Positions 4,460-37,825 of a DNA stretch of 64,000 bases are shown piece by piece. Under the pieces are notes generated by a model. The model made no database searches. It had not been told where the DNA came from and worked only from the letters and a program-made list of their open reading frames with translations. Positions within the stretch are counted from its first letter, which is position 1, and the number at the start of each line of letters is the position of its first letter. The translations under genes and the position numbers were made by a program. Source of the stretch: a bacterium (lineage in GTDB: Bacteria; Electryoneota; AABM5-125-24; Hatepunaeales; Hatepunaeaceae); assembly GCA_021734165.1 (NCBI GenBank), contig JAIPJL010000001.1:8792-72791 (forward strand). Reading direction: 5' to 3'.

Positions 4460-5236
4460 GTGCCTGTAAATAAAACAGTTGTAATTACATTAGGATCAAT
4501 CACCGTTTTGTCGCTAATTGCATGTATATCTCACTTTCTTAATATTTCCAAGCATCTTACTAACTTTTTCTTTTTCCTAAAAAGAAAAATAAGTGAGAGG
4601 AAAGGAAGAAAGAAATTTAATGATGTTGATAAGCAAGCAATTCAACTACTTAAAATAATAGATGCAAGCGAATTTGAACCTGGATTACTAAGTAGACTTC
4701 AATGGGCTCGTTATTTAGCAGATTCCAATGCAATTATAAGTAAACCTGATGGAACTCGTGAACTTGATCTTAAAGCTCTCTTTATCTCAGGAAAAAAGAG
4801 CATTAAACCAATTGAAATGGATATTGAATCAATAATAAAGTACATAATTAAAAAATTTGGTGTTATTGATGCTGTATTCGGACATCCTTATAACGATGAT
4901 TTTGTTACAATTTGTTACAATCAATCCAAAGATTATGGTAGAATTAGACAGGATCTAATATCTCCTGCTCAAAATCTTGACAATATTTCGAATCTGTTGG
5001 ATTCCGGTTCAAGAGTTATTATATTATGTGCTTATCTAACATTGTCGAATTTCCAACATTTAAAAAATTGGATTGATTCTATTAAAAATGCCCATCATAA
5101 TCCTCCTTGTACAATTATAGGTGGATTTATTCTGTTTAGAGCGCAACAAATTTCTGCAGAGATGATGCTATCTCTTTTCAGTAATGAAGAAAGGCTTATT
5201 CAGCCATTTAAATTGGATTTAGGGCATTTAGGATAA
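4460..5236 (+). CDS. Hypothetical protein with an N-terminal TM segment, inserted between pyrF and the pyrE-like gene
   Basis: Long ORF in an operon-like position. No recognisable motif, and the true start is uncertain. Confidence 0.35.
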   Translation: MPVNKTVVITLGSITVLSLIACISHFLNISKHLTNFFFFLKRKISERKGRKKFNDVDKQAIQLLKIIDASEFEPGLLSRLQWARYLADSNAIISKPDGTRELDLKALFISGKKSIKPIEMDIESIIKYIIKKFGVIDAVFGHPYNDDFVTICYNQSKDYGRIRQDLISPAQNLDNISNLLDSGSRVIILCAYLTLSNFQHLKNWIDSIKNAHHNPPCTIIGGFILFRAQQISAEMMLSLFSNEERLIQPFKLDLGHLG

Positions 5237-9603: not shown

Positions 9604-10506
9604 TCATCTTTTTTTATAAACAACTTTCACCCCCGACACCACCATCGCCATCAGTATCAATCCCGCGCCTATTAAAGACCTCCCCGACCATAACTCATTT
9701 AGTAACAACCAGGCAAACAGAGATGCAAAAATTGGCTCTGCTGTGAAGATCAACGCCGCATACCCGGCAGGCACCTGCGGTTGATATTTAGTCTGCAGCC
9801 AGGTGGCAGCAATCGATCCGAAAAGTCCCGTGTAAACAACAGCCAGCCAGCCTGTTCCGCTGATCTGAAACGGATTCCCGGCAATCAGACTCCAGATTAG
9901 GGCTCCTATAAATACCACCAGCATTTGTCCATACATCAGCAAACCTGTGTATTTGCCGTCACCTGCTACAAATTCAAGCGCTATCATCTGCAAAGCAAAC
10001 ACAAAGGCGCAGCTAATAGTCAGCCAGTCGCCAAGGTTTAAGCCACCTGAGCCGGGATCTGCCATGAAGTAAATACCCAGTACGGCAATAGGAATCCCCA
10101 GCCAGGCTGCCCTCGGCATTTTACTAGTCTTGAATAACAGGGCTAAGGGAGGCGTCATCACCACCAGCATTCCGGTGAAAAATCCGCTGCGTGAAGCTGT
10201 CGTGTGCTGCAATCCCAATACCTGCAAAGCAAATCCGAGAAACAGAAATATACCGACGAATATCCCGCGCAAGAGTACTGTTGCCGGCTTGGGATCGTTA
10301 TCTATATCTTTAGGAGATCTCAAAATGTGAGGGATAAAAAATGGAGTGGTAAGGATTACTGCCATACCAAATCTAAGCGCCAGGAAATGGATCGGATCGG
10401 TCAGCGACAGCGCAGATTTTGTAGCCGGAAACGTCCCACCCCATACAACACACAACAGCAACAGCATGAAGGTTGCGAAAACAGGGCGATTCTTGGTCGT
10501 TGTCAT
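9604..10506 (-). CDS. DMT-superfamily (EamA-type) permease with 10 TM segments
   Basis: Two EamA-like hydrophobic halves of about 300 aa in total. The gene abuts mazG. Confidence 0.8.
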   Translation of the reverse strand: MTTTKNRPVFATFMLLLLCVVWGGTFPATKSALSLTDPIHFLALRFGMAVILTTPFFIPHILRSPKDIDNDPKPATVLLRGIFVGIFLFLGFALQVLGLQHTTASRSGFFTGMLVVMTPPLALLFKTSKMPRAAWLGIPIAVLGIYFMADPGSGGLNLGDWLTISCAFVFALQMIALEFVAGDGKYTGLLMYGQMLVVFIGALIWSLIAGNPFQISGTGWLAVVYTGLFGSIAATWLQTKYQPQVPAGYAALIFTAEPIFASLFAWLLLNELWSGRSLIGAGLILMAMVVSGVKVVYKKR

Positions 10507-11318
10507 TACGACTTTTCCAACTCCTTCGCCTCATCCCAGTAGTCATCCATCTTTTCGAGCGTGACATCCTCTGGAGTTAATCCTTCTTCAGCCAGTTTCT
10601 TCTCGATGTAACTGAAACGGTTAATAAACTTACCTATTGTAGATTGGAGTGCAAGCTCCGGACACTTTCTGACATATCTTGCAACGCAAGCCGTCATAAA
10701 GAGCACATCACCAAGTTCGTCATTAATCTGATCGGAATCACCGTTAGCGATTGCCTGTTTCAGCTCAGCAACCTCTTCATCCAGCTTTTTCAACGCATCA
10801 TTAACGTTAGTCCACTCAAATCCAACCTTACCAGCCTTTTCAACCACTTTACGAGCTCTTAACAATGCAGGCATACTGGCAGGGATTGCTACTAAGCTGG
10901 TCGTATGTGAGCCTTCGGTACTTTTAGCATTCAACCATGAAGATAACGCTTCCTGTTCGTTATTTGCTTCAACATCCCCGAATACATGCGGGTGCCTGCG
11001 GATCAGCTTATCAGACAACTCCCTTGCAACATCACCAATATCGAAATCACCTCTCTCCGAAGCGAGTTGTGCATGAAAAATCACTTGCAAGAGCAGATCG
11101 CCAAGTTCCTCGCGCATCTCATCAACGTCACCTTTCTTGACACTATCAATAAACTCATAGCTCTCTTCAAGTAGATTTGGCAACAAAGATTCGGGAGTCT
11201 GTGCAGCATCCCAGGGGCAACCGCCGGGAGCGCGCAAGCGTGCCATGATTTGGATTACTCTTGCAAGATCTGGTAGCATATCGGGTGCTGATGTTTCTTT
11301 TCTATCGTGTGTTTTCAT
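10506..11318 (-). CDS. mazG: Nucleoside triphosphate pyrophosphohydrolase MazG (tandem MazG domains)
   Basis: IMARLRAPGGCPWDAAQTPESLLPNLLEESYE, plus a second EELGDVLF repeat. Confidence 0.85.
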   Translation of the reverse strand: MKTHDRKETSAPDMLPDLARVIQIMARLRAPGGCPWDAAQTPESLLPNLLEESYEFIDSVKKGDVDEMREELGDLLLQVIFHAQLASERGDFDIGDVARELSDKLIRRHPHVFGDVEANNEQEALSSWLNAKSTEGSHTTSLVAIPASMPALLRARKVVEKAGKVGFEWTNVNDALKKLDEEVAELKQAIANGDSDQINDELGDVLFMTACVARYVRKCPELALQSTIGKFINRFSYIEKKLAEEGLTPEDVTLEKMDDYWDEAKELEKS

Positions 11319-11378: not shown

Positions 11379-11891
11379 CTATAACAATGTAATCGGTAAT
11401 CCAATCCTAATAGCACTATTGTGATCAGCGAGTATTACTCTCGGAATATTGAGGAGTGTTAGTTTTCCTGACAGCAACCTGTTAAGTTCATCTTTGATAG
11501 GGTGAAGAAGAGGAAGGTTGGTGTGGTTTGTTTTTATTACGTGAAATACCCTTATTTTCTTGGTGTGGTCGTAGATTCTGAAATCTTCAGGTATATCCCC
11601 TCGTATTTCGCTTCCTTTGGGAGTGTTTAACCATGTTGCACATAGCAGAAAAAGAGTGTCTATTGTTTTTTCAAGTAGGACTATTGTTAAATCATCTTCT
11701 TGGAAACTATGCATAGAATAGTTTTTTACTTCAAGCAGATTGATGCGATTTCTGTCTATATCGAACCAGCAATAATCCATTTCCCGAAGATTCTTACCTT
11801 TCAAATGAATATATGTTTGCAATTCCTGAATACGAAAACTCGCTCCATCCGGTAGTGTAATCCGTAAACCAGACTCCTCGTAAACAGGCAT
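11379..11891 (-). CDS. Small partner protein of the upstream ATPase, a putative PD-(D/E)xK-type nuclease-fold protein
   Basis: Its start is 1 nt after the ATPase stop, indicating translational coupling. The FDID...LLEVKNY arrangement resembles D...(D/E)xK. This is an inference, and no other family was recognised. Confidence 0.4.
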   Translation of the reverse strand: MPVYEESGLRITLPDGASFRIQELQTYIHLKGKNLREMDYCWFDIDRNRINLLEVKNYSMHSFQEDDLTIVLLEKTIDTLFLLCATWLNTPKGSEIRGDIPEDFRIYDHTKKIRVFHVIKTNHTNLPLLHPIKDELNRLLSGKLTLLNIPRVILADHNSAIRIGLPITLL

Positions 11892-11892
11892 A

Positions 11893-12945
11893 TTAATCCT
11901 CTAAATCTATTCTTATGTCTTCCTCAAACAATTTAACTGATACATCAACAATCCTGTTTTCAGGCAAACCCTGATCCATATCTCCGGTTTCTGCATTTAT
12001 TCCTTGAAAAGCACCCGCTTCATTTTCGACTTTATTGAGAGAACAAAATGAAACACTCGTGTTCGTTTGACGAGCAAGCATCTCGATCTTCTTGATTACA
12101 AAGTAGCTGTGCGTAGCTATATATACCTGCACACCTAACTTCGTGAAATCAAAAAGGACATCCATTAACTTAATTATTGCATCAGGATGCAGGTTATCTT
12201 CTGGTTCATCAATGAAAAGAATAGTATTTCTGTTTATTGATCTGTTGTTTAAAAGATGCCTTAATATTCCGATCTTCTTTACACCTTCAGCAGTTTGAGA
12301 CATCGTAAATGTCTTCTTTTGGGCGGTATATATAAACTCATCGTCTGACTTCTCTATCTTGCCACCGAGTATATTATCCAATCTATTTCGACCCGACAGT
12401 AGATCTAATTGAATTCTTCCACTTACGGATGGTAATAGGAGTAATTCCACTAAATCAAAATAAGTGTCATCATATCCGAGAATGGGTTTCTGACCTTTAC
12501 GCGATTCATAGATAATGTCAAGGGTTGTTAGTACTTCTTTTGGTGGAAAGAATATTGTATTAGCATCTGTCGCTGTTACAAGTTTATTACAATCTCTAAT
12601 CAAGCTAGTTGTATCAGTTCCAAATGCGAAATGATAACTTTGAAAATTCAACTTTAAATCAACGGCTAATCTACTTCCGCCCTTGGAAACTAATTCACCA
12701 AGTTTAAGCCGAGGAGGAAGGAATGTCCAACTTAACTTTTCTGCAAGCAATTCACTCCAATTGTGTTTACTACCTTCTGGTTGCTTACGATAATTATCTA
12801 AACTCTTTATAGCAGCATACATCAGTTTAAGGAGTTGCGTCTTGCCGGTACCGTTTTCGCCGACAATTACATTTAAAGCATGGTGATTTTGCCAATTTAA
12901 TTCGTCAAGAGGTCCAAATTTTTCGATTATAATCGATTCTAACAT
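11893..12945 (-). CDS. AAA_21/ABC-type (SMC-head-like) ATPase of OLD/Septu/PARIS-like type. It is not RecF.
   Basis: Walker A is VGENGTGKTQ. Walker B plus the family-diagnostic motif is ILFIDEPEDNLHP. A histidine switch ATHS is present. The gene sits 17 nt downstream of gyrB. Confidence 0.75.
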   Translation of the reverse strand: MLESIIIEKFGPLDELNWQNHHALNVIVGENGTGKTQLLKLMYAAIKSLDNYRKQPEGSKHNWSELLAEKLSWTFLPPRLKLGELVSKGGSRLAVDLKLNFQSYHFAFGTDTTSLIRDCNKLVTATDANTIFFPPKEVLTTLDIIYESRKGQKPILGYDDTYFDLVELLLLPSVSGRIQLDLLSGRNRLDNILGGKIEKSDDEFIYTAQKKTFTMSQTAEGVKKIGILRHLLNNRSINRNTILFIDEPEDNLHPDAIIKLMDVLFDFTKLGVQVYIATHSYFVIKKIEMLARQTNTSVSFCSLNKVENEAGAFQGINAETGDMDQGLPENRIVDVSVKLFEEDIRIDLED

Positions 12946-12962
12946 TGTTCTTCCGCTTAACT

Positions 12963-14951
<1,989 letters not shown>

Positions 14952-15314
14952 TTATTCAAACCTGATGTCTGCAACAACAGGTTCACCGACGGCATCATTG
15001 AGCTTCCTACGAATAACTTCTTTATCATAACTAAGCTCATTTCGCCAGACAGCATTTTTCACCTTAACTCGAAGAATGCCATTACTAATCGATATCGGTG
15101 ATGTAACTTTAATTATCTCTTTACCAACTACCTGTTCCCAGACAATAATCGCTCTTTGAGACTTAATTATTTTCTGGCAACCAAGTTTGTTCGTGAGATC
15201 ATCTATAGCTAAGCCAAGAGGAATCGAATCTCGCCTATGAGGAAGTTCGCTAACCCATTTCAGATAACCCGTCAGCCTTTTCTGGCTTTGGGGTTTCTTC
15301 TGTTGAAACGACAT
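14952..15314 (-). CDS. DUF721-family protein, the RecF-operon-associated small Zn-ribbon-like protein
   Basis: It is 120 aa and sits in the conserved dnaN-(recF)-DUF721-gyrB position. A typical basic N-terminus is present. Confidence 0.65.
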   Translation of the reverse strand: MSFQQKKPQSQKRLTGYLKWVSELPHRRDSIPLGLAIDDLTNKLGCQKIIKSQRAIIVWEQVVGKEIIKVTSPISISNGILRVKVKNAVWRNELSYDKEVIRRKLNDAVGEPVVADIRFE

Positions 15315-15322
15315 TTATAAAC

Positions 15323-16441
15323 CTACTTGAGCCTGATAGGCATCAGCAGCATTAAATGATCTTCATCTTCCTGTTGACCGGTGGCTGTAACTACGGCAGC
15401 ATCATTAGTTGATTTTAGCGCAAAAACGACTTCTTCTGTATCTATCTGACGCAATACATCAATAAGATAGCTTGAATTGTAGGCAATCTCAAGTGGCTCA
15501 CCACTGTAATCAATTGCGATCTTTTCTTCACCGCGACCACCAAGCTCGGGATCTTCTGTTTCAAGCTTCATATCCATGTCTGAAATAGAAAGCTTAACCT
15601 GATGTGAAATCTGGTTTGCAAAGATCGATACTCTACCAACAGTAGCCATAAACTCATCAGCATTGACTGTCATCTTATACGGATTATCATCAGGAATTAC
15701 ACTTTCATATTTCGGGTAATGACCATCAATAAGCCGTGTGATTAGTCTTTGATGCTCAGTATAGAAATATGCTCTGGTTTCAGCAATTCCGATCTCCGGT
15801 TCGTCAGCATCATCCAGACTGCGTGTTAATAGATTCAGGGCTTTCATAGGTATCACTACATCACGAGCTTCACCTGAAAATTCAATTCCTCGCCTGATGA
15901 TTCGAGATAATCTATGTCCGTCTGTAGCTACGACACGTAGTTCATTTGATCTGATCTGCATTAATATACCGGTAAGTATAGGACGCATATCATCACGTGA
16001 TACTGCAAAAACTGTTTTTGAAATCAACCTTTTTAAGAACTCGCCACTTATCTTGAAGTTAATCTTCGCCTCGACAGAAGGAAGCTCCGGAAAATCCATA
16101 GGATCACCACCTGGAAGAGTATAAACGCCAACACCTTCACAGTTAAGTGTAACCTTTCTGCCTTCATGGACTTCCACCTCAAGAGGTACATCCGGCAGTT
16201 TGCTCACAAGCTCTTGTAGCCTCTTTGCCTGAATTAAAACACTACCATCTCCTTCTGACTCTATAATCTCAACTTTTGAAGTTATAGTAATCTCAAGATC
16301 TGTCGCAGTAATATCAAGACTACCATCTTTCAGTCTGAAGAAAATGTTACCAAGTGAAGGCATAGGCATTCTCACAGGTACTGCGCCCATAACCCGTTGG
16401 AGACTTCTATGTATCGAAGCCTGAGTGAACGTAAATTTCAT
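15323..16441 (-). CDS. dnaN: DNA polymerase III beta sliding clamp
   Basis: N-terminus MKFTFTQASIHRSLQRV, three clamp domains and 372 aa in total. It lies directly downstream of dnaA. Confidence 0.9.
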   Translation of the reverse strand: MKFTFTQASIHRSLQRVMGAVPVRMPMPSLGNIFFRLKDGSLDITATDLEITITSKVEIIESEGDGSVLIQAKRLQELVSKLPDVPLEVEVHEGRKVTLNCEGVGVYTLPGGDPMDFPELPSVEAKINFKISGEFLKRLISKTVFAVSRDDMRPILTGILMQIRSNELRVVATDGHRLSRIIRRGIEFSGEARDVVIPMKALNLLTRSLDDADEPEIGIAETRAYFYTEHQRLITRLIDGHYPKYESVIPDDNPYKMTVNADEFMATVGRVSIFANQISHQVKLSISDMDMKLETEDPELGGRGEEKIAIDYSGEPLEIAYNSSYLIDVLRQIDTEEVVFALKSTNDAAVVTATGQQEDEDHLMLLMPIRLK

Positions 16442-16932
16442 TTATTTTTCCTTTCTTACTGAGTAAATGCTCCTACTAAACGGAACTTACCCGTTCAATA
16501 ATGTATAAATTATCAGGTAAGATAGCAACACCTTTGAGTACCTTTTTACCTTTGTGAAAAATCGTATTTAAATTACTAAAGAATAATATATTATTTTAAA
16601 AATAATAGTGGTAATAATGGTGTTAATTTGTTGATAAAGATGCTGTTTTTGAACTTAATTATTCTATAAGTGTTGAATTATTTTGAACTAAAAGAATAAG
16701 GCGAAAATGTTAATAGTATTGTTAATAAGATTACTTTACGTTAATTAACATTAATAAAAAATAGAAATACTCGGATCCGCTTAGTTTGAAACTTATAGCT
16801 AATATATATTAACATTAGGTTTCAAAATTGGTTAATAAAGAGAGAAAAAAGCGTTAGTTTATGTTTATCCCGGTACGACATATAAACTAACGCAATTTTA
16901 AAACTCTGTTGACTTTTTATCAGCATGTGAGA
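16442..16932. promoter_or_regulatory. Candidate oriC: an AT-rich 491 bp dnaA-dnaN intergenic region
   Basis: Very AT-rich, with long A/T tracts that could act as a DNA-unwinding element. It contains TGTTGATAA (16629-16637), an 8/9 match to the reverse DnaA box TGTGGATAA, and several TTATC(A/C) fragments. Confidence 0.45.
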
Positions 16933-18327
16933 TTAGATTAAAGCAATGTCAATATCCCTTCGGATTTTTGCGATCATTTCTCTAACTTTAACATTATTCT
17001 CGATGAGTTCATTTACTACTTTCACAGCATGAATAACAGTTGCGTGATTTCTCCCGCCAAAATGCAGTCCGATAGTTTTTTGTGTTAGAATTGTGTATTC
17101 AGTAGTCAGATACATAGCGATATGTCTGGCTCTTACGACTTCTTTTTTTCGTGTTTTCGACCGGATTAAATCACTTGGTATATCCATCTCCCTGGCAACC
17201 ATTTCCTGGATTTGATCCACTGATATCGTATAGGATGGCTGGTTATGTTGTTTCTTGATAGCCTCACGAGCAAGATCAAGGGTTATTTCACGTCCCATTA
17301 GGGATGATTGAGCGAGAAGCTGAATTAACGCACTCTGTAAAGAGCGAATGTTAGTCGAGATGTGAACTGAAAGGAAATGGGCAATATCGTCTGAGATGTC
17401 GATGCCATTTTCTTTGGAGAGGTTCTTTAATATTGCCAGTCGTGTTTCATATTCAGGTTTTTGTACTTCTGCGACAAGTCCCCATTGCAACCGACTAACA
17501 AGTCTTTTATCGAAACCGTTAAGTTCATTTGGAGGACGGTCTGAGGAAAAGACCAGTAATTTACCTACCTGGTGAAGTGAGTTAAATGTATGGAAAAACT
17601 CCTCCTGAGTTTTCTCCTTAGTCATAAAGAATTGGACGTCATCAAGCAAAAGTAGATCTACATTTCTATAGTTTTTTATAAAGACGTCTTTTTTTCCATC
17701 CTGAATGCCTTTGATAAAATCAGATGTAAACTGTTCGCTTGTAACATAGAGTACTTTTTTTACCCGACCGAGTTCAACAGCGCGATTACCTATAGCCTGC
17801 ATTAAATGTGTTTTACCTAATCCGGAACCACCATAAATAAGTAGCGGATTGAAGGGATTTTTTCCTGGTGTTTCAGCAAGCGAGAGAGCTGCCGCGCGCG
17901 CAAAGCTATTGCAATCGCCTTCAATGAAATTACTAAACCTATAACGTGGATTTAGATGAGTGTAACTGGCGCTGATGCTTAAAGTTGATGTATAATCAGA
18001 AGTTGGCGCTGATTTTTCTCTGTAGGCAATTCGTTCGCTTATAATTTGAGGTTTGCCTGGATTGATGTCGTACATAACCACAATATTTTCACCGAGCACG
18101 TCTTTAACAGCTTGATGCAGCGGATCATGGTAATGACTCTCAATCCAGTCATGGCAAAATTGACTTGGGATACGGAGTGTTAGTGTCTTTTGGTCATATG
18201 CAAGAGCTTCAATAGGCTTAAACCAGGTGAGGTAGCTCTGTGGAGGAATGATATCTTGCAAGATTGTAGAAATTTTTTGCCAAACCATCTGTGGATGTTC
18301 ACTTGATTGAAAGGCTGGTTGGGTCAT
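16933..18327 (-). CDS. dnaA: Chromosomal replication initiator DnaA
   Basis: AAA+ Walker A is GGSGLGKTHL. The C-terminal DnaA-box binding domain is present (IAMYLTTEYT..IGLHFGGRNHATV). Confidence 0.95.
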   Translation of the reverse strand: MTQPAFQSSEHPQMVWQKISTILQDIIPPQSYLTWFKPIEALAYDQKTLTLRIPSQFCHDWIESHYHDPLHQAVKDVLGENIVVMYDINPGKPQIISERIAYREKSAPTSDYTSTLSISASYTHLNPRYRFSNFIEGDCNSFARAAALSLAETPGKNPFNPLLIYGGSGLGKTHLMQAIGNRAVELGRVKKVLYVTSEQFTSDFIKGIQDGKKDVFIKNYRNVDLLLLDDVQFFMTKEKTQEEFFHTFNSLHQVGKLLVFSSDRPPNELNGFDKRLVSRLQWGLVAEVQKPEYETRLAILKNLSKENGIDISDDIAHFLSVHISTNIRSLQSALIQLLAQSSLMGREITLDLAREAIKKQHNQPSYTISVDQIQEMVAREMDIPSDLIRSKTRKKEVVRARHIAMYLTTEYTILTQKTIGLHFGGRNHATVIHAVKVVNELIENNVKVREMIAKIRRDIDIALI

Positions 18328-18563
18328 ATCTTATGTTCCTATGGGATAAGGACTTATGTTTACTGCTACATGTGATAGAAAATATATACAGGACTTGCAT
18401 TTGAGTCAAGTGTTTAACGCGATTTAATTATTCTTAAACACATTAATACAAATTAAGGGAAATTCCATTTAAACAAGGAATAAGCCATATTAAGATTTTT
18501 AAAAGGTGTCTAAGGCGGTATATAATTCTATGTTGTGCATTAATAGAAGGATGCGTGTATTTA

Positions 18564-20306
18564 TCACTTACCTGTTTTCAACCAGATTGGATTCGAGTAT
18601 GCGAATCGAGTTGAGCCATTATGCAGGCGAGTGTGAATTTCTGCTCTTAGATAAAGCTCGCCTTGAAGCTGAAACTCAATACCCTTGTAATATATTGGTT
18701 CATTATTATTTACATCAAAATTCACTTGGAAGATTGATTTTTCGTCACCGGAATTATAAGTATTAACAATAATTCTTTCTATACAGCCGAATTCTTCTGA
18801 TGATTGACATGTGACTCGTATAAGGGAGTTTGGATCAGATAAGGTCTCGTCTCCGGATAAAAATTTCTTTGATTGATTTAGGACAGTCAATTCGAGGACT
18901 GGTCCGCTACTAATAACAGTCCTTCCAAGTTCTAAAGCTTTTAGAACATTTTGCACAGTGGGAGTTTCGTTGATGTACACATGAGTAGTGGATTTACCAA
19001 AGATAAAGTTATCATGTTCATGCAGTGAAAGCATCGGCATTTTTACCTGCCTGAAACGATTGAAGTTGCCATGTGCATCATTACCGGCGTATATATAACG
19101 TCTTTCACCCTTCAACAGCGCTGTTATCCATTTTTCTAATCCGAGATAAAAATCCTTTTCCGGATTTCCGTTGAGTATCTGCCATCCGCTAAGTCCGGAA
19201 GCGCTCAGATCGCTATCCTGCCAGATACTTCTATTAACCAAATGCTTTTGCAGAAATGGTACAGGGGAAAATGGATGCGCCGCTATAGTAACCGAATTCT
19301 CTGACAGAGCGGCTATGGCATGTCTGACGGTAAATTGGCTTCTCGTCTGAAACCATTCCTGAGCGCTGTCACCTGTGCCCTGTAGGAATCTTTGCTCACC
19401 AAGAACCAGCATGTGGACGTTTTTTCCATTGGATGCTCGACAGGTCAGTTCCTCACCCGGAACGAGTACAACACTACCGGGCATTTTATTGAGACGTTTA
19501 ACATGAGACAGGAATCCGTGCCATTTAAGGAGTTGCGGATCATCGTGAAGATAGTCATCGATCATGTCATCGAGGTTGTATGAGTGGTCGGTAAGGCTTA
19601 CCCAGTCGAGTCCCAGCGCATCCGCTGTTGATTTTATGGCTTCGAGAGGAGCTCCGAACTCAACCTGATCGCAGCCGTATTCAGTGTGGGTATGCAGTTC
19701 TCCGGCATACCAGCCTGGCAGCTTCGGTAGTGGCTCGGCAGCGAGAAAGACCTCAAGCGGAGCTTGTGATAGCCCATGATAGTTATCCTGACTAACATCC
19801 CATGTGCGTTTTTTATCTTGAAGATGAGCGGTTGCTTCGATCTTGACCAAACCAGGTGGAAAATCAGACACATCCACGTCTGAGACGCAGTGCCAGAGGG
19901 ATTTGTTAATCCACAGGTTCAACGGTATGTTGAGCGACTGCGATTTTTCGCCGTTGCTGATCCTGATGTCAATACTCTCGAGCTTAACCGGAAAATGGTG
20001 GGCGTCTTTGATGATCATTGTTATCGGCAGATTGTGATTGGGTTCCAGCCTGAAGGGAGCGTCGAAGATTACTTCCGGCTCACGCCTGAAGTATCTGCTG
20101 AAAGGAAAACCGCGAAAGCGATAGTGAGTCTCAGCGTAGAGCCCGATCAGGGGGATTAGATCGGGGATGTTTATGTTAGTTGGATCAATCAAGGTTTCCG
20201 ATAATAACACAGTAGTGGTGTCAGGTATCCTCGCCCTGCAGCGCTTCCGTTGAATTATCACCCGGAGTAACGAAGCTTGCTTCGTTGTAGAGCAGCGCTC
20301 AGGCAA
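18564..20306 (-). CDS. PHP-domain metal-dependent phosphoesterase with unknown N- and C-terminal regions. The start is uncertain.
   Basis: PHP motifs: GELHTHTEYG (HxH), SLTDHS, VLVPGEELTC, IAAHPFSP and AGNDAHG. The first Met of the ORF may not be the true start. Confidence 0.6.
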   Translation of the reverse strand: MPERCSTTKQASLLRVIIQRKRCRARIPDTTTVLLSETLIDPTNINIPDLIPLIGLYAETHYRFRGFPFSRYFRREPEVIFDAPFRLEPNHNLPITMIIKDAHHFPVKLESIDIRISNGEKSQSLNIPLNLWINKSLWHCVSDVDVSDFPPGLVKIEATAHLQDKKRTWDVSQDNYHGLSQAPLEVFLAAEPLPKLPGWYAGELHTHTEYGCDQVEFGAPLEAIKSTADALGLDWVSLTDHSYNLDDMIDDYLHDDPQLLKWHGFLSHVKRLNKMPGSVVLVPGEELTCRASNGKNVHMLVLGEQRFLQGTGDSAQEWFQTRSQFTVRHAIAALSENSVTIAAHPFSPVPFLQKHLVNRSIWQDSDLSASGLSGWQILNGNPEKDFYLGLEKWITALLKGERRYIYAGNDAHGNFNRFRQVKMPMLSLHEHDNFIFGKSTTHVYINETPTVQNVLKALELGRTVISSGPVLELTVLNQSKKFLSGDETLSDPNSLIRVTCQSSEEFGCIERIIVNTYNSGDEKSIFQVNFDVNNNEPIYYKGIEFQLQGELYLRAEIHTRLHNGSTRFAYSNPIWLKTGK

Positions 20307-20396
20307 GCCTGAACACTCCGGATTTAATTAACCAAAGTTGGATAGTTGATAAGCGACTGTATTTCAGGTTACAAGTAATCAACTGTTAATATATTT

Positions 20397-20957
20397 TCAA
20401 TCTCCGGCTAAAGCGCCTCGAATTCGCTCAAACTCTTTACAAGCTGCAACTAATGAATCAGGTGGAGATTCCAGTTCTTCCCCATTTTTGCAGTTATTTG
20501 CCAGCTTATCGACTAATTGATGTCCTTTCTTGCTTTCGCAAATCGTTCTGTATTCGTTTTTGTATTCTTTTTGTTCGGATTCATCAACATCAACACCATC
20601 CAGATAGGCTGCCCACGTTTCAATAGACCATTTGGGAATGACGTATATAATCTGTTCTTTTTCCGTTCTGGGTGGTTGAAATTTTGAGTCAAGAATCCTG
20701 GTCGCCTCTTTTACAGAATCTTCATCAGCGTCGCGAACTATTAGCAGGATGGTTGAGGCATGTCGTGTCCGGAGCGCTTTCGCTTCCTCACCAATTTTAT
20801 CTTCCACGAATTTTTTACCCGAACCTTTCTCTCGCGGGTAGGGACGGAAACGAAATTTGTAGATAGGAACTTTCCAGCCTGACCTTAAAAAGCGACGAAC
20901 GAAAACCTCATGGCTTTTATCCTCACAAAGGACAATGATCTCCGAGGCTTTACTCAT
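20397..20957 (-). CDS. TOPRIM-like small protein of DUF4276/RloB-like type, partner of the upstream ATPase
   Basis: An N-terminal IIVLCEDKSHE acidic motif followed by LLIVRDADEDS (DxD) fits the TOPRIM Glu...DxD arrangement. The gene overlaps the ATPase stop by 8 nt. Confidence 0.5.
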   Translation of the reverse strand: MSKASEIIVLCEDKSHEVFVRRFLRSGWKVPIYKFRFRPYPREKGSGKKFVEDKIGEEAKALRTRHASTILLIVRDADEDSVKEATRILDSKFQPPRTEKEQIIYVIPKWSIETWAAYLDGVDVDESEQKEYKNEYRTICESKKGHQLVDKLANNCKNGEELESPPDSLVAACKEFERIRGALAGD

Positions 20958-22059
20958 TTTCCCAACCTCGTACCACTATTTCAGCAGGCGTAAGGTCAGC
21001 CACAGGTTTCAGAGGCTTCGTTATCACATGTGAACCCTCTTGACGCGAGAACCATAACTCTTCACCTCTTGCCATTTCATTAATGATCTCAGGGTGATGC
21101 GAGATAATAATGACTTGTCGATCATACTCATCGCAGATATCTTTCAGGTTGTTTATCCAGGGCTGAATTTCCCTTAGTGAAACGAAATTATCCGGCTCAT
21201 CTATTAAAATTTCCGTGTAAATTCCTATCTGAAGCGCTAACATTAGGGTGTAAAGTATAATTAGTTGGCGTTGCCCATCAGATAAGGATAGAAAATCAAA
21301 ATCCCTGTCCTTGCCGTTGATCCTGAAGGTTGCTGTTAAACGACGTGACGAACCAACCTCTTTCAGACGCAAGCTCTCAAAGCCTGGAAGTACGTCTTTC
21401 AAATGCTCTTTAGTCAGGTAACTTATATTTGGGTGTTCCTGAAAGATGTAGCGACACCATTCTGAAAAGTTCTCTGCATGAAAGGATAGCCATCGTGTTT
21501 CGGATTCAGCATCTTGTTTTACAAAATGAGGTATGGGGTTAATAAGCAACCATTTTAAAACAGCTTCACGGAAACGAAGCAGCGGCTCATTGCCTTCGTT
21601 TTCAGCGATAGTAGAAATAACCGAACGACTCCAGTCTGCCCCAAACGAAACTCCCTTCTCGGGTTTACCAGTATCTCTATTGACTCGATATAGGTGTGTG
21701 TTCTTTCCGTCAAACAGGTAGAAAGTGGAATCATTCCACTTCAATTCCTCTCTATCGATCCTGATCTTGTTCTCAGATTTTAACCACTCTATGCTAAGAT
21801 TGTAATCATAACTATCATTGTCTATCAGCATTGAAAAACCAATGGTCTGCGTTGTACGCTTGTCCCATACAGTCAAATCTGAGATGCTAAATATATCCTC
21901 CACATGGTTACCTTTTAAGAGAGACTGAATGTTTCTCAAAGCGGTAAGCACTGTGGATTTGCCGGAACCGTTATCACCAAGCCAGAGCTGAAATTCTCCC
22001 GGTTGGATGCGGAAATTGGTTAAACACTTGAAATTGTCAATGTAAATTTCTTTTATCAT
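20950..22059 (-). CDS. AAA_21/ABC-type ATPase of the OLD/PARIS AriA/RloA-like family
   Basis: Walker A is GDNGSGKST. A LSDGQRQ signature-like motif is present. Walker B is ILIDEPDNFVSL, and IISHH follows. Confidence 0.75.
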   Translation of the reverse strand: MIKEIYIDNFKCLTNFRIQPGEFQLWLGDNGSGKSTVLTALRNIQSLLKGNHVEDIFSISDLTVWDKRTTQTIGFSMLIDNDSYDYNLSIEWLKSENKIRIDREELKWNDSTFYLFDGKNTHLYRVNRDTGKPEKGVSFGADWSRSVISTIAENEGNEPLLRFREAVLKWLLINPIPHFVKQDAESETRWLSFHAENFSEWCRYIFQEHPNISYLTKEHLKDVLPGFESLRLKEVGSSRRLTATFRINGKDRDFDFLSLSDGQRQLIILYTLMLALQIGIYTEILIDEPDNFVSLREIQPWINNLKDICDEYDRQVIIISHHPEIINEMARGEELWFSRQEGSHVITKPLKPVADLTPAEIVVRGWENE

Positions 22060-22236: not shown

Positions 22237-22917
22237 TCAAACAGCGCATGTTCCCGTTCCAAGTGCTTTAAAGCTCATCCCTTTATCGAGCAAAGTTCTC
22301 AAGATACCAGGCAGCGCTTCCAACATATTATCGACATAATTTCCTTTGTCATGGAGCAGGACAATATCTCCTGGCTTAACCTTCTTAACGATACGCTCAA
22401 CGAGTAACTTTGGTTGTATCGGTCGATAATCGCCTGCCGATAGCGACCAGAGAACGATTTGCATATTCAAGGATTTTACAACTGAAAGCAGGGGTAATCC
22501 TATGCGTCCGTAAGGTGGACGAAACAACCTTGAATTGCACAATCCGGCGTCGGATATTGCGCCTATGGAGCGGTTGATCTGATCGAGTACGGTTTCTCTT
22601 CCTGCCCAGACAAGCGAGCGATGGTCGTAACTATGACTTGCCACGGTGTGACCTGCTTCGTAAGTCTGTTTGATGATGTCAGGATATTGATCTGCCTGTG
22701 TTCCAATCACAAAAAACGTTGCTTTGCAGTTATACTCGTTGAGGATACTCAGCAGTTTAGTCGTATTAACCGGATCGGGACCGTCATCGAATGTTAAATA
22801 TATCCCATCCGGATCTCCTCGGCTGATTACGTTTGGAAATATAACTGAAGCAGCTTGTGGAAAAATATCTGAAAACATCAGGCTTTCCCCTTGCTCTGAA
22901 ATTGCTGCCCTTTCCAT
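22237..22917 (-). CDS. Polysaccharide deacetylase (NodB homology domain, CE4)
   Basis: FDDGPDP...ATFFVIG...HTVASHSYDH motifs. Confidence 0.85.
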   Translation of the reverse strand: MERAAISEQGESLMFSDIFPQAASVIFPNVISRGDPDGIYLTFDDGPDPVNTTKLLSILNEYNCKATFFVIGTQADQYPDIIKQTYEAGHTVASHSYDHRSLVWAGRETVLDQINRSIGAISDAGLCNSRLFRPPYGRIGLPLLSVVKSLNMQIVLWSLSAGDYRPIQPKLLVERIVKKVKPGDIVLLHDKGNYVDNMLEALPGILRTLLDKGMSFKALGTGTCAV

Positions 22918-27807: not shown

Positions 27808-29439
27808 CTACATAGTGAACCAATGGGCGGCTTTTGTAGCACCAACTATTTTGATTTTACCCTCATTTTTTAAGTTGTTTAACAAACTACTTATTTGTCT
27901 TCTTGACAAATCTGGAAGTACTTGCATGAATTCGCTCATTGTGCTTCCCTCCTTATTGTATGTTTTTATATGTTCCAATAAAAGTGCTTTGTTCGTTTCT
28001 TTGTCCAATCCCTTCTTACGTGTATAAGTCCCTTTTTCTCCCAAGTGCGAATAGTACTTTCTGGATAGTATCAGATGATGTTTGCCTTTTTCGGGTCGCT
28101 CAACTACGTTATGCTTTAGTAGATGCTGGATTCTTTTATTAACAATATCTCGCTCAAGGGTTTTTGGGTATCGACCTTTCTTTCGGATGGAATCAAGGAT
28201 AAGATAATCTTCTGAAGAAAAATTAGTCTGAGTTTCTTTGCCGATCTTTTCAAGGAAACTTATAAAACCAGGATCTTCGATTTTACCCGATAAATCTACC
28301 ACAACCTCAGTTCTATCTGATTGTGAGTAATCCGGCAGAGCTTTACTCTCCATAATACACTGTCGGAACATCAATCTTGTCCCTTGATTTGATCTCTCAA
28401 CTAAACCGCACTTTGCGAGGACGTCAGCTATTCGACGGTTGCGTGGAACTTGTTTGGTGAGGATGTTTTCAGGATTGACGCCTTCCGGGAAACCGCCTGG
28501 ACTGCTAACTGAAATTTTCTCCGGGTACTGCCTGATGAAAACTGAACCGGGATGACGATAATCACGATGACTGATAGCATTAAGTATGGCTTCTCTGACA
28601 ACTTCTTCATTCAGACTCTTGATATCCCATTTGAAGAAGCCATCCTGAATATATTGTCTTGTGTTTCGGTTATCTATAATTTTCCATAAATCGTCAAAGT
28701 ACTTAAAGAAACCAACATTAAATTCTTCTCTTGCGTCATATTCAATCTTTGCTTCATTTGCTCGATATTCAAAGACAAGTTCAGAGCGGGGAATATAATC
28801 TCTTATAGCTTTCCTTTTCCCGAGCAGAATCAATGCTGCATAGGTTACTCTATTGTTAACGATGAGTTCAATGTCATTTAGCAATTGTGAATCGGTACTA
28901 TTTCGAATGTCTTTATTTCCTGATTTGATACTCCATATATTCCTCAGTTGATGAATAGCCTCATCATCAAGATCGGTTAGTGATGCCCCTTTACAGATTT
29001 CAGAAGAAAAATCCTGATGCTCCTCGTCAAGGATTTCTTTGAGTGTGTTTGGCGGCATATCGCTAATACTATCGCCAATCCTCATCAAATATCTGCCTTT
29101 GTAACGTATTGGTTGACCGATTGTTCTTGACGGTATATCAAAGATTAAAACGCGCACATCAGGATGCTGAACTTCCCGAATATTAACACGAATGTTTAGT
29201 TCATCAAAGACTTTCTTTTTTATCTTATCAAGATTTTGGAATGCACTCGTTCCGACAACCAATCTTGGTAATTTGTCAGTGACGCCAAGTACCAACTTGC
29301 CGCCTCTTTCGTTTGCGATAGCCGCACAGTACATTACTGTTTTCTCGATATTAAAGCTAGATTTTGCTTCTTTGAACTCGAGGTGTTCTGTTTCTTTCAA
29401 GGTTAGCAGAGATTCTAATTCTGCTATCAAATTATGCAT
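27808..29439 (-). CDS. AlbA_2 (Schlafen-like) + HATPase_c_4 'divergent AAA'-type putative transcriptional regulator/ATP-binding protein with a C-terminal wHTH
   Basis: N-terminal AlbA_2 segment (EHLEFKEAKSSF...AAIANERGGKLVLGV). The central region is typical of the RecG-C-terminal-like HATPase_c_4 family. A wHTH lies at the C-terminus. Confidence 0.65.
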   Translation of the reverse strand: MHNLIAELESLLTLKETEHLEFKEAKSSFNIEKTVMYCAAIANERGGKLVLGVTDKLPRLVVGTSAFQNLDKIKKKVFDELNIRVNIREVQHPDVRVLIFDIPSRTIGQPIRYKGRYLMRIGDSISDMPPNTLKEILDEEHQDFSSEICKGASLTDLDDEAIHQLRNIWSIKSGNKDIRNSTDSQLLNDIELIVNNRVTYAALILLGKRKAIRDYIPRSELVFEYRANEAKIEYDAREEFNVGFFKYFDDLWKIIDNRNTRQYIQDGFFKWDIKSLNEEVVREAILNAISHRDYRHPGSVFIRQYPEKISVSSPGGFPEGVNPENILTKQVPRNRRIADVLAKCGLVERSNQGTRLMFRQCIMESKALPDYSQSDRTEVVVDLSGKIEDPGFISFLEKIGKETQTNFSSEDYLILDSIRKKGRYPKTLERDIVNKRIQHLLKHNVVERPEKGKHHLILSRKYYSHLGEKGTYTRKKGLDKETNKALLLEHIKTYNKEGSTMSEFMQVLPDLSRRQISSLLNNLKNEGKIKIVGATKAAHWFTM

Positions 29440-29816: not shown

Positions 29817-31682
29817 TCACCGGATTAATTCCACCTTCTGATACCTTACAAATTTATCGCTCTTCAATGAAACGAAATAACTGCCGGACGGCAAAAACCC
29901 GCCATCAAGCATAACTGAATGTTTACCTGTATTAAACCATTTTGAGTCCTCCTTTATTAGTTCACGTCCGTTGATATCGTAAAGTACAATTGTTATCGGT
30001 TGACTGAGCGGATTGAAAAAATCTATGTTCAGTTTAGAATTGAAAGGATTTGGATATGATGAAAACATCTCAAAATCATCAAGTACTGCATATTGTCTGA
30101 ACGAAATAGCGTTTTCATGGTGAAAGTAAAATCTACCTATATCCGCTCTCGTACTGTCCGGATCAAGTGGACTTTCAGGATCACCGGCATCGATACAGGG
30201 CGATCCACGTTGTAGTAATAATAAATCAGGGAACGCAAAAGCCAATAGAGGATCTTCTGTTATGTTGGATTCCTCCAATTCAAATTGAAAATCATTACGC
30301 CTATTAAAGTCGGATAATAAATTATCATAACCCCAAATGCAATTATAGCTAATATCTGGAATGTTTTCCTGCTGATTGAGGGAGAACCAGAAAACTGCGT
30401 TACAGCTTTCCGGACTGAAAAATATGTTATTCACAATCTTGTAATCACACTCTCTGGCTGAAAAACGTATAGCTTGCTCATCTGCGCTATCAGTAATAAT
30501 AGTATTATTAGTAAAAATCACATCTCCAGAACCTCTTGTAAATATATATGGTGAGCCGTAAATCGTGTTTCTTTCAATTATTGTAGTTGTTATCGCATCT
30601 TCCCAAGGTATCCTGAAGAAAAATGCATACTCATCATCATAGGAATTAAAAATATCACATTCTCTGAAATATAATGTTTCACTCTCATCATTCTGTATTC
30701 TGACACTCCCAATCACATGATTGTTTTCAAATCTTGTTGAGTCGTAGTATCGGAAGTCCACAGATCCGCCTATGTAATTATTAGTAATATCAGCGCCATT
30801 TACTATTGTTCCTGATAAGCCTCCACTTATTATATTGTTATAAATTCTTAACCTTCCACCGGATGTACCAAGAATAACATTTCCCTGAATATAACAATCA
30901 AGCATAACACTTGGATTAATATAAACCGTTACGGAATCATTGGGAGATAAAAAGCGGCAATTACGGAATGAAGAACCCAACCAAGCATCAACGGAACCTA
31001 TAATTGTGCAACTATCGAGGATAGTTGCACCAAAAGATCCATTAAAAATTCCCCATTCTTCGCCTGATCCTGTCCTAATATAGCTGTTTATTGCGAAAAA
31101 TCCTGCACACCTAAAAGCTATCCTACTATTTCCGGTAATGTGGCATTTGTTGATCTCATAGTGATCCCTTTCATTTACATTTAGACTTCTAATTGGTCTA
31201 TTATCACTTTGAATGGTGCAGTTATTCAGAAAGATAGTAACCTCATTACTCGAAAGAATAGCATTTATATTATTTCTTATTGCGCAATAATTGAATGTAT
31301 AATCAAAGTCTTGATTACTAATAGTAATTCCTCGCCAAAGCAGATCTTCTTCCTGGGATAAAAACCTGACCGAGTCTTCTTCAGTTCCATTTACAGTTAA
31401 TCCGCCGGATGCAGTTAGACCAAGGCTGTCCGCAAACAGCACCTCCACTCCTGGACCAATCCTCAGTTCTTCATTCTCAGGTATCCATGTCGAGTCAATG
31501 ACGATATACGGGCTGCCTTCAACCGTCCATTCACCCGACACTTCACTTGAGACCTCTGTTTGGGCGAAGGTTTTTAAGGGGAAAAAGGCAAGAAATATTG
31601 CAAGAATAATCATGGTGTACCTAAATTCAACACAAAGCACATAATAAATCCTTGAAAAAGGTTCACTTCTTAAAAACAACAT
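29817..31682 (-). CDS. Secreted right-handed parallel beta-helix (pectate-lyase-fold) protein with a T9SS C-terminal sorting domain
   Basis: Signal peptide. Repetitive N..I.GN/NN..I.G beta-helix rungs. C-terminal YPNPFNSKLNIDF...VSLKSDKFVRYQKVELIR, a Por_Secre_tail-like domain. Confidence 0.7.
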   Translation of the reverse strand: MLFLRSEPFSRIYYVLCVEFRYTMIILAIFLAFFPLKTFAQTEVSSEVSGEWTVEGSPYIVIDSTWIPENEELRIGPGVEVLFADSLGLTASGGLTVNGTEEDSVRFLSQEEDLLWRGITISNQDFDYTFNYCAIRNNINAILSSNEVTIFLNNCTIQSDNRPIRSLNVNERDHYEINKCHITGNSRIAFRCAGFFAINSYIRTGSGEEWGIFNGSFGATILDSCTIIGSVDAWLGSSFRNCRFLSPNDSVTVYINPSVMLDCYIQGNVILGTSGGRLRIYNNIISGGLSGTIVNGADITNNYIGGSVDFRYYDSTRFENNHVIGSVRIQNDESETLYFRECDIFNSYDDEYAFFFRIPWEDAITTTIIERNTIYGSPYIFTRGSGDVIFTNNTIITDSADEQAIRFSARECDYKIVNNIFFSPESCNAVFWFSLNQQENIPDISYNCIWGYDNLLSDFNRRNDFQFELEESNITEDPLLAFAFPDLLLLQRGSPCIDAGDPESPLDPDSTRADIGRFYFHHENAISFRQYAVLDDFEMFSSYPNPFNSKLNIDFFNPLSQPITIVLYDINGRELIKEDSKWFNTGKHSVMLDGGFLPSGSYFVSLKSDKFVRYQKVELIR

Positions 31683-31883
31683 CTATTCCATGTACTATGG
31701 TTAATCTAAACCTGAAAATCAGCTTTAGCAAGACACTTATTCAATAAATAATTACTATGTAGTACTAATCTGCTTCATCTGTTGTATCTGATTAGAAAAA
31801 ATCTTTCTAATTTATAACTATAATACAAAATCCATAGTTATAAATAATTAAATCCTGATAATCCTGTCTATCCTTGTTAAGCA

Positions 31884-31975
31884 TTCCGTCACGTTCCGTC
31901 ACATTTCCGTCACACCATCTAACCCATACCCAGTATGTCTTTCCGGCGATTCTGTGACGATGTGACGATAATTTT
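31884..31975 (+). repeat. Copy B of the GTCAC/GTGAC intergenic repeat family
   Basis: ttccgtcacgttccgtcacatttccgtcacaccatctaaccc - 28 bp - gtgacgatgtgacgataatttt. Confidence 0.55.
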
Positions 31976-32012
31976 GCCTACCCGGAATCTTTGTCGAAAA
32001 TTGCGTCGAGAT

Positions 32013-32041
32013 TTGACTTTTATAGAAAAATGTTGTATATT
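32013..32041 (+). promoter_or_regulatory. Near-consensus sigma70-like promoter (TTGACT-N17-TATATT), orphan on the + strand, followed by a possible short transcript ending at the hairpin at 32114-32133
   Basis: TTGACT at 32013-32018 and TATATT at 32036-32041 with a 17 nt spacer. No + strand ORF of 60 aa or more lies downstream. The stem-loop gacaagca-ttct-tgcttgtc lies about 75 nt further on. Confidence 0.35.
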
Positions 32042-32181
32042 GTCACTATGTCACATGACGAACTTTGCTCTTTAAATCACAGGCAGAGACGCCTACGCTA
32101 CGTTTATGGTTTTGACAAGCATTCTTGCTTGTCCTACTGTTAACAAACCCTTCTTTCTAACTTTCTTACTTGTTTCCTTTC

Positions 32182-34461: not shown

Positions 34462-34741
34462 CTTAAACCTCCGTATGTATTTTTAAATACTAAAGAACTT
34501 CAAAATCTAAAATAAAAGCGTGGCACAGTCAGCACTGTTAATCTGAGCAAAGCGAAGAAGCTCCTTCATTATCCCGCCCCCCCTACTACTCAGTTTGTGC
34601 GGGAATATGTAAAATCGCCAGAACTGTCATTCCTGCGCAGGCAGGAATCTAAAAGGGTTATGTACTTAATAATTAAGCAGATATGGATTCCGGCTTTCGT
34701 CGGAACGACACACTATCGCAATATTTCAAAGAACTCATTAT

Positions 34742-37700: not shown

Positions 37701-37825
37701 AAACTCAGTCTAACAGGAACGCCATTTTCCGGCTGCCAGCGTCGAAAATCGTTCTGGGCGAAGACTGTTGTAAATGTGAATAGGATGAATATGAAAGTTG
37801 CTGATTTCTTTATATTGTGATGCAT
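34742..37825 (-). CDS. Large secreted tandem-repeat protein (about 10 copies of a ~50 aa repeat) with a T9SS C-terminal sorting domain
   Basis: Signal peptide. Repeats of the form G..IV.W.D.R...DIYAQRI..(D/E)GE..W...G. C-terminal SIYPNPFNSQTMISY...KIVLLK. Confidence 0.7.
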   Translation of the reverse strand: MHHNIKKSATFIFILFTFTTVFAQNDFRRWQPENGVPVRLSLHTEWNPNGVRRNEGELVGEVGYVWTDARSGYRGIVLQVIDPEGEMKFPDEGLQVLDLTSSVDVPMIGASSDGGWYLFWSDRRNNWEGDLYCTKVTEDSEAVWGADEGGLLILEDEREYLCEKIIDDGEGGCFIFIKRTFTHIIDRFVHHITADGRPDPDWSEEGMPLQWDDAISDGDGGIIYSWTGGSRQASYDIQLQRVSAAGELLWGDDQGIIACDNNSHQRWSKLCTDGAGGVIVVWVDSRNTEETGNDIYAQRINPDGELIWGEEGAPVCIADGDQRKLNIITMGQGQSVLCWSEFAENSVILGIYAMRISGEDELSLDWDSEGGVPAMTTDYEIQDLLCEPKLCPDNEGGVYIVWSYRRDYDENRDDVFAQRINNDGETVWEENGILIQGGEYFQGFPVVNQLGGNRCSVVWSDESDQIEKVRMQYIDLDGEFEWDGEGMEFITGFDEGISEQIIVGFGEGNFAAAWIEQIKGVHSARPYVQFGHDAGDSVFFEFEDDGIAAVEGDVMGSEHLSGIQDGDGGVIIVWGDNPDGYTWSNILAQRISCEGELLWAPEGIMVSDYEYDQDDPVICTDGNEGVIVAWVVSADDIYAQRINAEGERLWGEIGERITSSEPEEKDVQIAGDGEGGAVIVWRLQTEDRNMQLRAQRLDAEGNPLWGDEPIILCSSQERQRDPQVVWHPEGFFFVWDDRRVQDQDGIYGQFIEADGELRWDDNGTMICGSIEFQHSPKTVVDSDGFIWVLWECTNDIIMQKIDPSGGAPELLFGEDGRPVIDFESLQEDFDVKTDHNGGLWVVWKDYRSMRGYDIYGIHFNPDGEFYESWSEGGNPICETGLNKITAMAAILTEGGESGIVVSWLDARGSGKNGYYDLYCQRVDDEHLSVPGSRESKTTQPSDYTIDSIYPNPFNSQTMISYTAKSDGKVKIALYDVTGRLVRQLANKKVVAGSHQLTLHAETLAAGQYIVRLDAGDTKLERKIVLLK

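Follow-up and report, generated by a model that had tools for sequence, protein, structure and literature searches.

The 64,000-nucleotide stretch analysed here (the window; positions 8,792 to 72,791 of contig JAIPJL010000001.1, assembly GCA_021734165.1, from a bacterium of the Hatepunaeaceae) contains the dnaA-dnaN-dciA-gyrB gene block with its probable replication origin, flanked on either side by a two-gene module that pairs an ABC-type ATPase with a small predicted nuclease (Table 1). Module 1, on the dnaA side, consists of a 369-aa ATPase (ATPase369) and a 186-aa Toprim-like protein, and module 2, on the gyrB side, of a 350-aa ATPase (ATPase350) and a 170-aa NERD-like protein of predicted PD-(D/E)xK type. 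We consider it likely that the two are separately acquired anti-phage cassettes lying in intergenic gaps that flank the origin block, and that their location reflects the permissiveness of these gaps and not a role in replication.

Every gene from 10.5 to 39 kb is encoded on the minus strand, and the conserved order runs from the deacetylase and PHP hydrolase genes through dnaA, oriC, dnaN, dciA and gyrB to mazG. The PHP hydrolase gene is part of this conserved backbone and of neither module, and mazG is the backbone gene that bounds the variable gap behind gyrB. Within that gap, ATPase350 starts 17 nt past the gyrB stop codon, the 170-aa open reading frame (ORF) follows 1 nt after ATPase350, and mazG begins 60 nt further on. 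The initial annotation, made from the letters alone, gave the gene content and coordinates as we find them and left unmentioned the PHP hydrolase gene between module 1 and dnaA; its picture of modules embedded inside the most conserved operon of the chromosome does not hold, the dnaA-dnaN-dciA-gyrB block being uninterrupted. The cassettes lie beside the conserved block and leave it intact, which makes their placement less a surprise than a curiosity.

Two ATPase-nuclease pairs and their named relatives

Module 2 is, by its profile matches, a clear member of HEC-02, combining an ABC ATPase with a NERD-like PD-(D/E)xK predicted nuclease. ATPase350 matches the PADLOC model HEC-02A (PDLC04214) with 373.3 bits (E 3e-112; residues 1-347 on profile positions 1-336 of 338), and the 170-aa protein matches HEC-02B (PDLC04224) with 132.5 bits (E 3.7e-39; residues 1-166 on profile positions 1-174 of 182). 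As read from the translation, the catalytic motifs of ATPase350 are intact (Walker A, G29-ENGTGK-T36; Walker B, I242-LFIDE247; H279), and its Pfam matches include AAA_21, AAA_15 and SMC_N (26.5 bits). The ATPase350 family comprises more than 868 homologous clusters, found in cyanobacteria, Bacteroidota and Myxococcota; among the full-length protein clusters found, identity to ATPase350 reaches no more than 47-48%, and a much closer copy lies on a partial contig (L015). For the 170-aa family, a word-indexed search returned 5 relatives and an exhaustive search 182 representatives, 54 of which were aligned. D39 is conserved in all 54 sequences, E54 in 53 and K56 in 41, with E6 and K75 invariant, which yields a D...ExK signature; the window protein has E6, D39, E54-V-K56, K75 and D78. 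This signature, together with the HEC-02B match, bears out the PD-(D/E)xK arrangement first suggested for this partner.

HEC-02 was defined by Payne et al. as an ABC ATPase with a NERD-like PD-(D/E)xK protein embedded in Hma systems, and in E. coli homologous HEC-02 systems cut plaque formation by several phages by orders of magnitude, both genes being needed (bioRxiv 10.1101/2024.01.29.577857). Module 2 shares the two-gene layout of this family, in which a NERD-like partner (~170-180 aa) comes after an ABC ATPase of ~340 aa, the two genes adjoining on the same strand and the partner keeping the (D/E)xK motif; however, no Hma system surrounds module 2, which occupies the space between gyrB and mazG by itself. 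A terminator-like site was not found at the gyrB-ATPase350 junction (consensus promoter and terminator scans performed at chance level), and the short spacing without such a site suggests that module 2 may be co-transcribed with gyrB.

Module 1 is a more distant case and appears to represent a divergent ABC-ATPase/Toprim pair of the HEC-01 or Mad3-Mad4 kind. Among PADLOC models, ATPase369 matches HEC-01A (78 bits), PDC-M25A and mad3 (68 bits), each over its full length, and its Pfam matches are AAA_21 (53 bits), AAA_15 and SMC_N (40.8 bits). Its translation contains a Walker A motif (G28-DNGSGKS-T36), a signature motif (L259-SDGQ), a Walker B motif (I284-LIDE288) and an H-loop (H321/H322). The protein is 84% identical to its counterpart in the related origin locus L007, 75% to that of Candidatus (Ca.) Electryonea and 66% to that in L012.

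The 186-aa partner belongs to a family of ~85 clusters, none of which has a name or a Pfam domain; they derive from Ca. Electryonea, Desulfobulbus, Ca. Electrothrix, Hydrogenedentes and others. Across an alignment of 48 sequences, C11-E12-D13, D76, D78, W115 and E126 are invariant, and an AlphaFold2 (AF2) model (predicted local distance difference test score, pLDDT, 89.8; predicted template modelling score, pTM, 0.86) shows the order β-α-β-α-β-α-β-α, with strands at residues 6-10, 35-37, 69-74 and 103-106, E12 after strand 1 and D76-A-D78 after strand 3. This arrangement, a glutamate behind strand 1 and a DxD motif behind strand 3, has been described as the Toprim signature in DUF4276/Mad4 and RloB (PMC12065111). 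When family members were scanned singly, HEC-01B was matched by 20 of the 48 (best 3e-6), DUF3226 by 11, mad4 by 7 and DUF4276 by 4. Motif placement, secondary-structure order and these weak family-wide profile matches point to a Toprim-like predicted nuclease, in agreement with the TOPRIM-like label of the initial annotation; the call rests on these three lines because the window protein itself matches no model at E<=0.01, and the secondary-structure argument uses the alternation of strands and helices along the sequence, not the strand order in the sheet.

Compared with named systems, module 1 has the architecture of HEC-01 (an ABC ATPase with a TOPRIM protein), and ATPase369 aligns end to end with the HEC-01A models, but the scores are low and the 186-aa protein misses all HEC-01B models at E<=0.01, which places module 1 in a separate divergent subfamily. 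The Mad3/Mad4 pair of MADS, with its DUF4276/DUF3226 proteins, likewise sets an AAA_15/21 ABC ATPase beside a small Toprim protein; however, the methyltransferase and other MADS genes are absent near module 1, and its ATPase scores 45 bits on the NCBIfam model MAD3, whose cut-off is 420. In PARIS, AriA holds the Toprim nuclease AriB until a phage protein triggers its release, whereupon AriB cleaves tRNA (PMC11464382), and module 1 is proposed to work along similar lines, with an ABC ATPase scaffold and sensor that would release a Toprim nuclease on a phage trigger. The 186-aa partner is nevertheless half the size of AriB, DUF4435 is matched neither by the partner nor by its family, and AriA models match the ATPase weakly (43-62 bits); membership in PARIS is not claimed.

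The two ATPases resemble each other only at the P-loop (BLASTP E 0.04 over 39 aa), and the nuclease partners are unrelated by hhalign (probability 1%). ATPase369 and ATPase350 are distant homologues in the same ABC superfamily, and only the partners are unrelated, such that the early description of the modules as non-homologous applies to the partners and only loosely to the ATPases. Their designation as defence-type ATPase-nuclease cassettes was sound, through HEC-02 for module 2 and a remote HEC-01/Mad3-Mad4 likeness for module 1. Both pairs are ordinary members of known defence families, the Toprim partner of module 1 being without a curated model, and four genes labelled "hypothetical" or "ATP-binding" gain names. 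The 186-aa family, a compact Toprim effector of several bacterial lineages that current defence-finding tools would mostly miss, could be a useful addition to their model sets.

Table 1. Features of the origin region and locations of related genes and gene pairs (window positions unless a locus is named)
Feature	Location	Strand	Assignment, evidence or context
mazG	10506-11318	-	NCBIfam PRK09562, 304 bits
Module 2 partner (170 aa)	11379-11891	-	HEC-02B match; NERD-like PD-(D/E)xK predicted nuclease
ATPase350 (module 2 ATPase, 350 aa)	11893-12945	-	HEC-02A match; AAA_15/AAA_21, E ~6e-16
gyrB	12963-14924	-	DNA_gyraseB, Toprim, HATPase_c, GyrB_C
dciA (DUF721)	14952-15314	-	PF05258, 64 bits
dnaN	15323-16441	-	DNA_pol3_beta, three domains
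dnaA-dnaN spacer, probable oriC (491 bp)	16442-16932		GC 0.33; sign change of GC skew at third codon positions (GC3 skew); box cluster
dnaA	16933-18327	-	Bac_DnaA, 217 bits; DnaA_N; Bac_DnaA_C
PHP-type CehA/McbA-family metallohydrolase (580-aa ORF)	18564-20306	-	NCBIfam NF038032, 94.5 bits
Module 1 partner (186 aa)	20397-20957	-	Toprim-like predicted nuclease; 8-nt overlap with ATPase369
ATPase369 (module 1 ATPase, 369 aa)	20950-22059	-	Pfam AAA_21, E 6e-14; AAA_15; SMC_N
Polysaccharide deacetylase	22237-22917	-	upstream of module 1, after a membrane protein and a GT2 glycosyltransferase
gyrA	39319-41823
gidB, gidA, mnmE, yidC	53.9-60.2 kb
PHP gene in relatives	L001 8121-9785; L002 8212-9777; L007 5471-7099; also L004, L005
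Module 1-type pair	Ca. Electryonea		next to helix-turn-helix (HTH) and unnamed genes; 75%/68% identity
Module 1-type pair			between phosphotransferase system (PTS) genes and a pectate-lyase-like gene
Module 1-type pair	Hydrogenedentes metagenome-assembled genome		among glycosyltransferases
Module 1-type pair			between transglutaminase and recJ
Module 1-type pair	within L017 1-16552, Desulfobulbus alkaliphilus		between the DUF1156 methylase and DUF499 ATPase of Hma; SNF2 helicases and an HD protein flanking
Module 2-type pair	within L016 3763-12832		between BrxC-like DUF6079 and PglZ; partner shortened to 133 aa
Module 2-type pair	L020		beside a DNA methyltransferase and a UPF0175 gene
Module 2-type pair			alone among metabolic genes

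The probable origin and the variable gaps around it

Per-gene GC skew was modelled as the sum of a coding-strand term and a replication term. The best change point falls at 16.0-17.5 kb. It was recovered with all positions and stands out further at third codon positions, where the fit (r=+0.10) leaves a residual sum of squares of 930 vs 1478 for the null, with a strand term near zero. This sign change between dnaN and dnaA upholds the earlier assignment of a chromosomal origin region, and the origin itself is probably located in the dnaA-dnaN spacer. Boxes resembling TTATTAACA are clustered there, 7 of the 56 matches in the window lying in a 230-bp part of the spacer (16609-16838), although the motif was selected after reading the spacer, which makes the cluster weak evidence; no enrichment of canonical TTATCCACA DnaA boxes was found. 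Measured from the spacer, module 1 lies ~3.5-5 kb away on one side and module 2 ~3.5-5.5 kb away on the opposite side.

An origin at the strand switch near 39 kb, beside gyrA, was considered and rejected, the raw GC-skew flip at that point being a coding-strand effect that gives way, under strand modelling and at third codon positions, to the change point at 16.0-17.5 kb. Both gyrA and the gidB, gidA, mnmE and yidC genes lie inside the same window. Transcription of the ~20 kb of genes to the right of the origin (18.5-39 kb), among them those of module 1, opposes the rightward fork, and this head-on arrangement ends at the strand switch beside gyrA (39.3 kb).

DnaA-based scans of genomes and metagenomes recovered five origin loci at the level of Caldithrix, whose DnaA is 55-58% identical to that of the window. 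Module 1 is absent in L001, L002, L004 and L005, where the deacetylase and PHP genes touch or overlap and leave no space for it. Module 2 is absent in L001 and L002, where mazG still lies downstream of gyrB with other genes intervening, the gap being filled with secreted proteins tagged for the type IX secretion system (T9SS) and an unnamed 496-aa protein. In L001, an IS200-like Y1 transposase (15926-16411) directly follows gyrB and is succeeded by a T9SS-tagged protein, the 496-aa protein and mazG.

Closer relatives, at 81-85% nucleotide identity, keep the modules. L007/L008 (DnaA 89% and GyrB 92% identical) carries module 1 at the same position, the ATPase being 84% and the partner 70% identical, and L015, a 1-kb contig, aligns with window positions 12334-11274 at 84.7% nucleotide identity and spans the end of ATPase350, the 170-aa gene (79% identical) and the start of mazG, with the same mazG junction. 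Both modules are accessory, being variable at depth and retained among genus-level relatives. Identical gene content in all relatives, which the initial annotation had named as refuting its reading, is not what the comparison shows, presence/absence variation being seen in the Caldithrix-level loci.

The PHP gene, by comparison, lies directly upstream of dnaA in all related origin loci recovered (L001, L002, L004, L005 and L007). It has zero Pfam matches and is matched instead by an NCBIfam model. Since the proteins of the relatives align from residue 39, where a TTG codon is present, its true start is probably this TTG at 20192 (542 aa), 38 codons inside the annotated TTG at 20306.

Selection was gauged through the ratio of nonsynonymous to synonymous substitution rates (dN/dS). 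Against L007, ATPase369 gives 0.17 and its 186-aa partner 0.38; against L015, the C-terminus of ATPase350 gives 0.07 and the 170-aa gene 0.25; backbone genes range from 0.02 to 0.12. Because their ratios lie at 0.07-0.38, the cassette genes are taken to be functional and under purifying selection, with the effectors evolving faster. At four-fold sites, module 1 differs from L007 at 49 of 167 positions (0.29) vs 504 of 978 (0.52) for seven pooled flanking genes (Fisher p=1e-7). As its synonymous divergence is below that of its flanks, module 1 may have been exchanged between the window and L007 lineages after their split, as this one pairwise comparison suggests.

Homologous pairs were sampled in nine other contexts, six of module 1 type and three of module 2 type, all with unrelated neighbours and none with dnaA, dnaN or gyrB (examples in Table 1). 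The overlapping ATPase-partner layout is kept in every module 1-type pair sampled. One of the six module 1-type contexts (L017) is inside a defence system, the other five comprising housekeeping or uncharacterised genes, and the embedding in L017 means that Hma, the very context where HEC candidates were defined, also houses a pair of this type. The 186-aa family was found in none of the viral contigs scanned.

In the dnaA-dnaN-recF-gyrB cluster, the ABC-type ATPase normally present is RecF, encoded between dnaN and gyrB. In the window, a Pfam domain scan found recF missing from the dnaN-gyrB interval, with dciA there instead, likewise in the Caldithrix-level relatives. RecF and both module ATPases are alike in being P-loop ATPases of ABC/SMC type in the origin gene cluster, but the module ATPases are accessory and nuclease-paired. 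RecF identity was rejected for either of them, the TIGR00611 model giving 27.1 and 26.5 bits vs a cut-off of 172, over residues 1-42 (the P-loop) only, and the case guards against calling an ABC ATPase beside gyrB RecF.

Competing explanations for the two modules

The reading that we favour, two separately acquired anti-phage cassettes in permissive gaps on either side of the origin block, draws on their family membership, intact catalytic motifs, purifying selection and accessory distribution, on the contexts of homologous pairs elsewhere and on the position of the origin. By analogy with PARIS-like ABC-ATPase/nuclease systems, each ATPase would serve as sensor and scaffold, keeping its nuclease partner inactive. 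A phage-derived trigger, along with ATP binding or hydrolysis, might then free or activate the nuclease, which would cut nucleic acid (tRNA or DNA) and end the infection, probably sacrificing the cell. Read in this manner, the locus offers a small example of defence cassettes in gaps between highly conserved core genes, and its origin-proximal position would matter only if it proved general across genomes.

Several results weigh against this reading. In published assays, HEC-01, which of the named systems is most closely related to module 1, did not protect against phage (bioRxiv 10.1101/2024.01.29.577857). The 186-aa protein of the window has zero Pfam, PADLOC and NCBIfam matches at E<=0.01, a Foldseek search of its model against the PDB gave nothing significant (best E 0.012, with GajA and retron Eco2 as weak matches), and a search of PDB sequences with the family profile returned nothing. 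For the 170-aa partner, AF2 yielded a low-quality model (pLDDT 57; 5 sequences in the alignment), Pfam NERD is matched by no member of the family, and the profile search of PDB sequences was empty. Neither insertion is marked by an integrase, a transposase or repeats, direct or inverted, at its flanks, and GC deviation within the window is mild. A departure in composition is seen for module 2, whose genes have a GC content of 0.36-0.37 vs 0.45-0.46 for gyrB and mazG (z=-1.2 to -1.5 within the window; ATPase350 0.362, z=-1.5), and is absent for module 1. The synteny comparison, moreover, is based on few related origin loci.

The placement of the cassettes might alternatively be under selection, with the origin flanks acting as a hotspot or "safe harbour" in which cassettes are swapped by homologous recombination through the conserved dnaA and gyrB genes, and in which gene dosage and read-through from gyrB ensure expression. 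We regard this as unlikely, although there are hints in its favour. Two unrelated cassettes lie within ~5 kb of the origin spacer, one per side, and both are kept at the same sites in genus-level relatives. The four-fold divergence of module 1, about half that of its flanks, is as a post-split exchange would look, but this low value possibly reflects composition or codon effects and comes from one relative. The cargo of the gyrB-mazG gap differs in the Caldithrix relatives, where it includes the IS200-like transposase of L001; it is made up, however, of secreted proteins and not of defence genes. The position of module 2, 17 nt past gyrB with no terminator-like site between, would suit read-through. 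Against these points, the pattern comes from two cassettes in a single lineage, and the homologous pairs in the other sampled contexts are not near dnaA or gyrB.

A broader version, which we hold to be quite improbable, would make the deacetylase/PHP-dnaA and gyrB/mazG gaps a conserved "core defence hotspot" of this FCB-group (Fibrobacterota-Chlorobiota-Bacteroidota) lineage, with cassettes swapped between species by homologous recombination via the replication genes and module 2 riding on a supercoiling-responsive gyrB transcript. If such a hotspot were general, origin-proximal placement would amount to a previously unquantified rule of defence-gene organisation.

One or both pairs, module 1 especially, could instead be selfish addiction modules of toxin-antitoxin (TA) type or a defence against plasmids or mobile elements, which we judge very improbable. 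The failure of HEC-01 against the phages tested fits this idea, as do the Pfam description of AAA_21, which ties the domain to AbiEii/type IV TA systems, and the occurrence of lone two-gene cassettes in housekeeping contexts. That failure, however, was seen outside the native host and with a restricted set of phages and is weak negative evidence, whereas an Hma defence system contains a module 1-type pair, ATPase-Toprim pairs of the Mad3/Mad4 and PARIS types belong to proven anti-phage systems, and the family of module 2 has been validated against phage.

A role of the ATPases in replication or repair at the origin, as a RecF replacement or as SMC-like chromosome organisers, is extremely unlikely: the weak SMC_N (RecF/RecN/SMC) matches, the dnaN-gyrB interval without recF and the position adjoining gyrB and near dnaA would fit it, but the RecF model reaches only the P-loop, nothing has been replaced because neither recF nor the modules occur at this site in the Caldithrix-level relatives, the pairs elsewhere lie beside unrelated genes or inside Hma/BREX systems, and both ATPases have a predicted nuclease as a close partner, a hallmark of defence systems, such that the connection with replication once offered as an option is not borne out.

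Further observations in the window

Between the pyrF-like and phosphoribosyltransferase genes, a 258-aa ORF (4460-5236, plus strand) combines a GC content of 0.309 and a third-position value (GC3) of 0.193 with no Pfam or PADLOC matches. On the other side of the origin block, between it and gyrA, three large proteins with Por_Secre_tail (T9SS sorting) domains are encoded on the minus strand (29817-37825), and the 1027-aa member of the group (34742-37825) has an unusually strong negative GC skew of -0.26.

About 6 kb beyond module 1, a 543-aa protein (27808-29439, minus strand) carries Schlafen AlbA_2 and HATPase_c_4 domains and shows a weak PADLOC match (36 bits) to proteins associated with prokaryotic Argonaute (pAgo). 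Its gene adjoins the kilobase of lowest GC in the window (0.284, 27-28 kb) and could be a third accessory gene of defence or regulator type. A HATPase_c_4 protein also precedes the HEC-02-like pair of L016.

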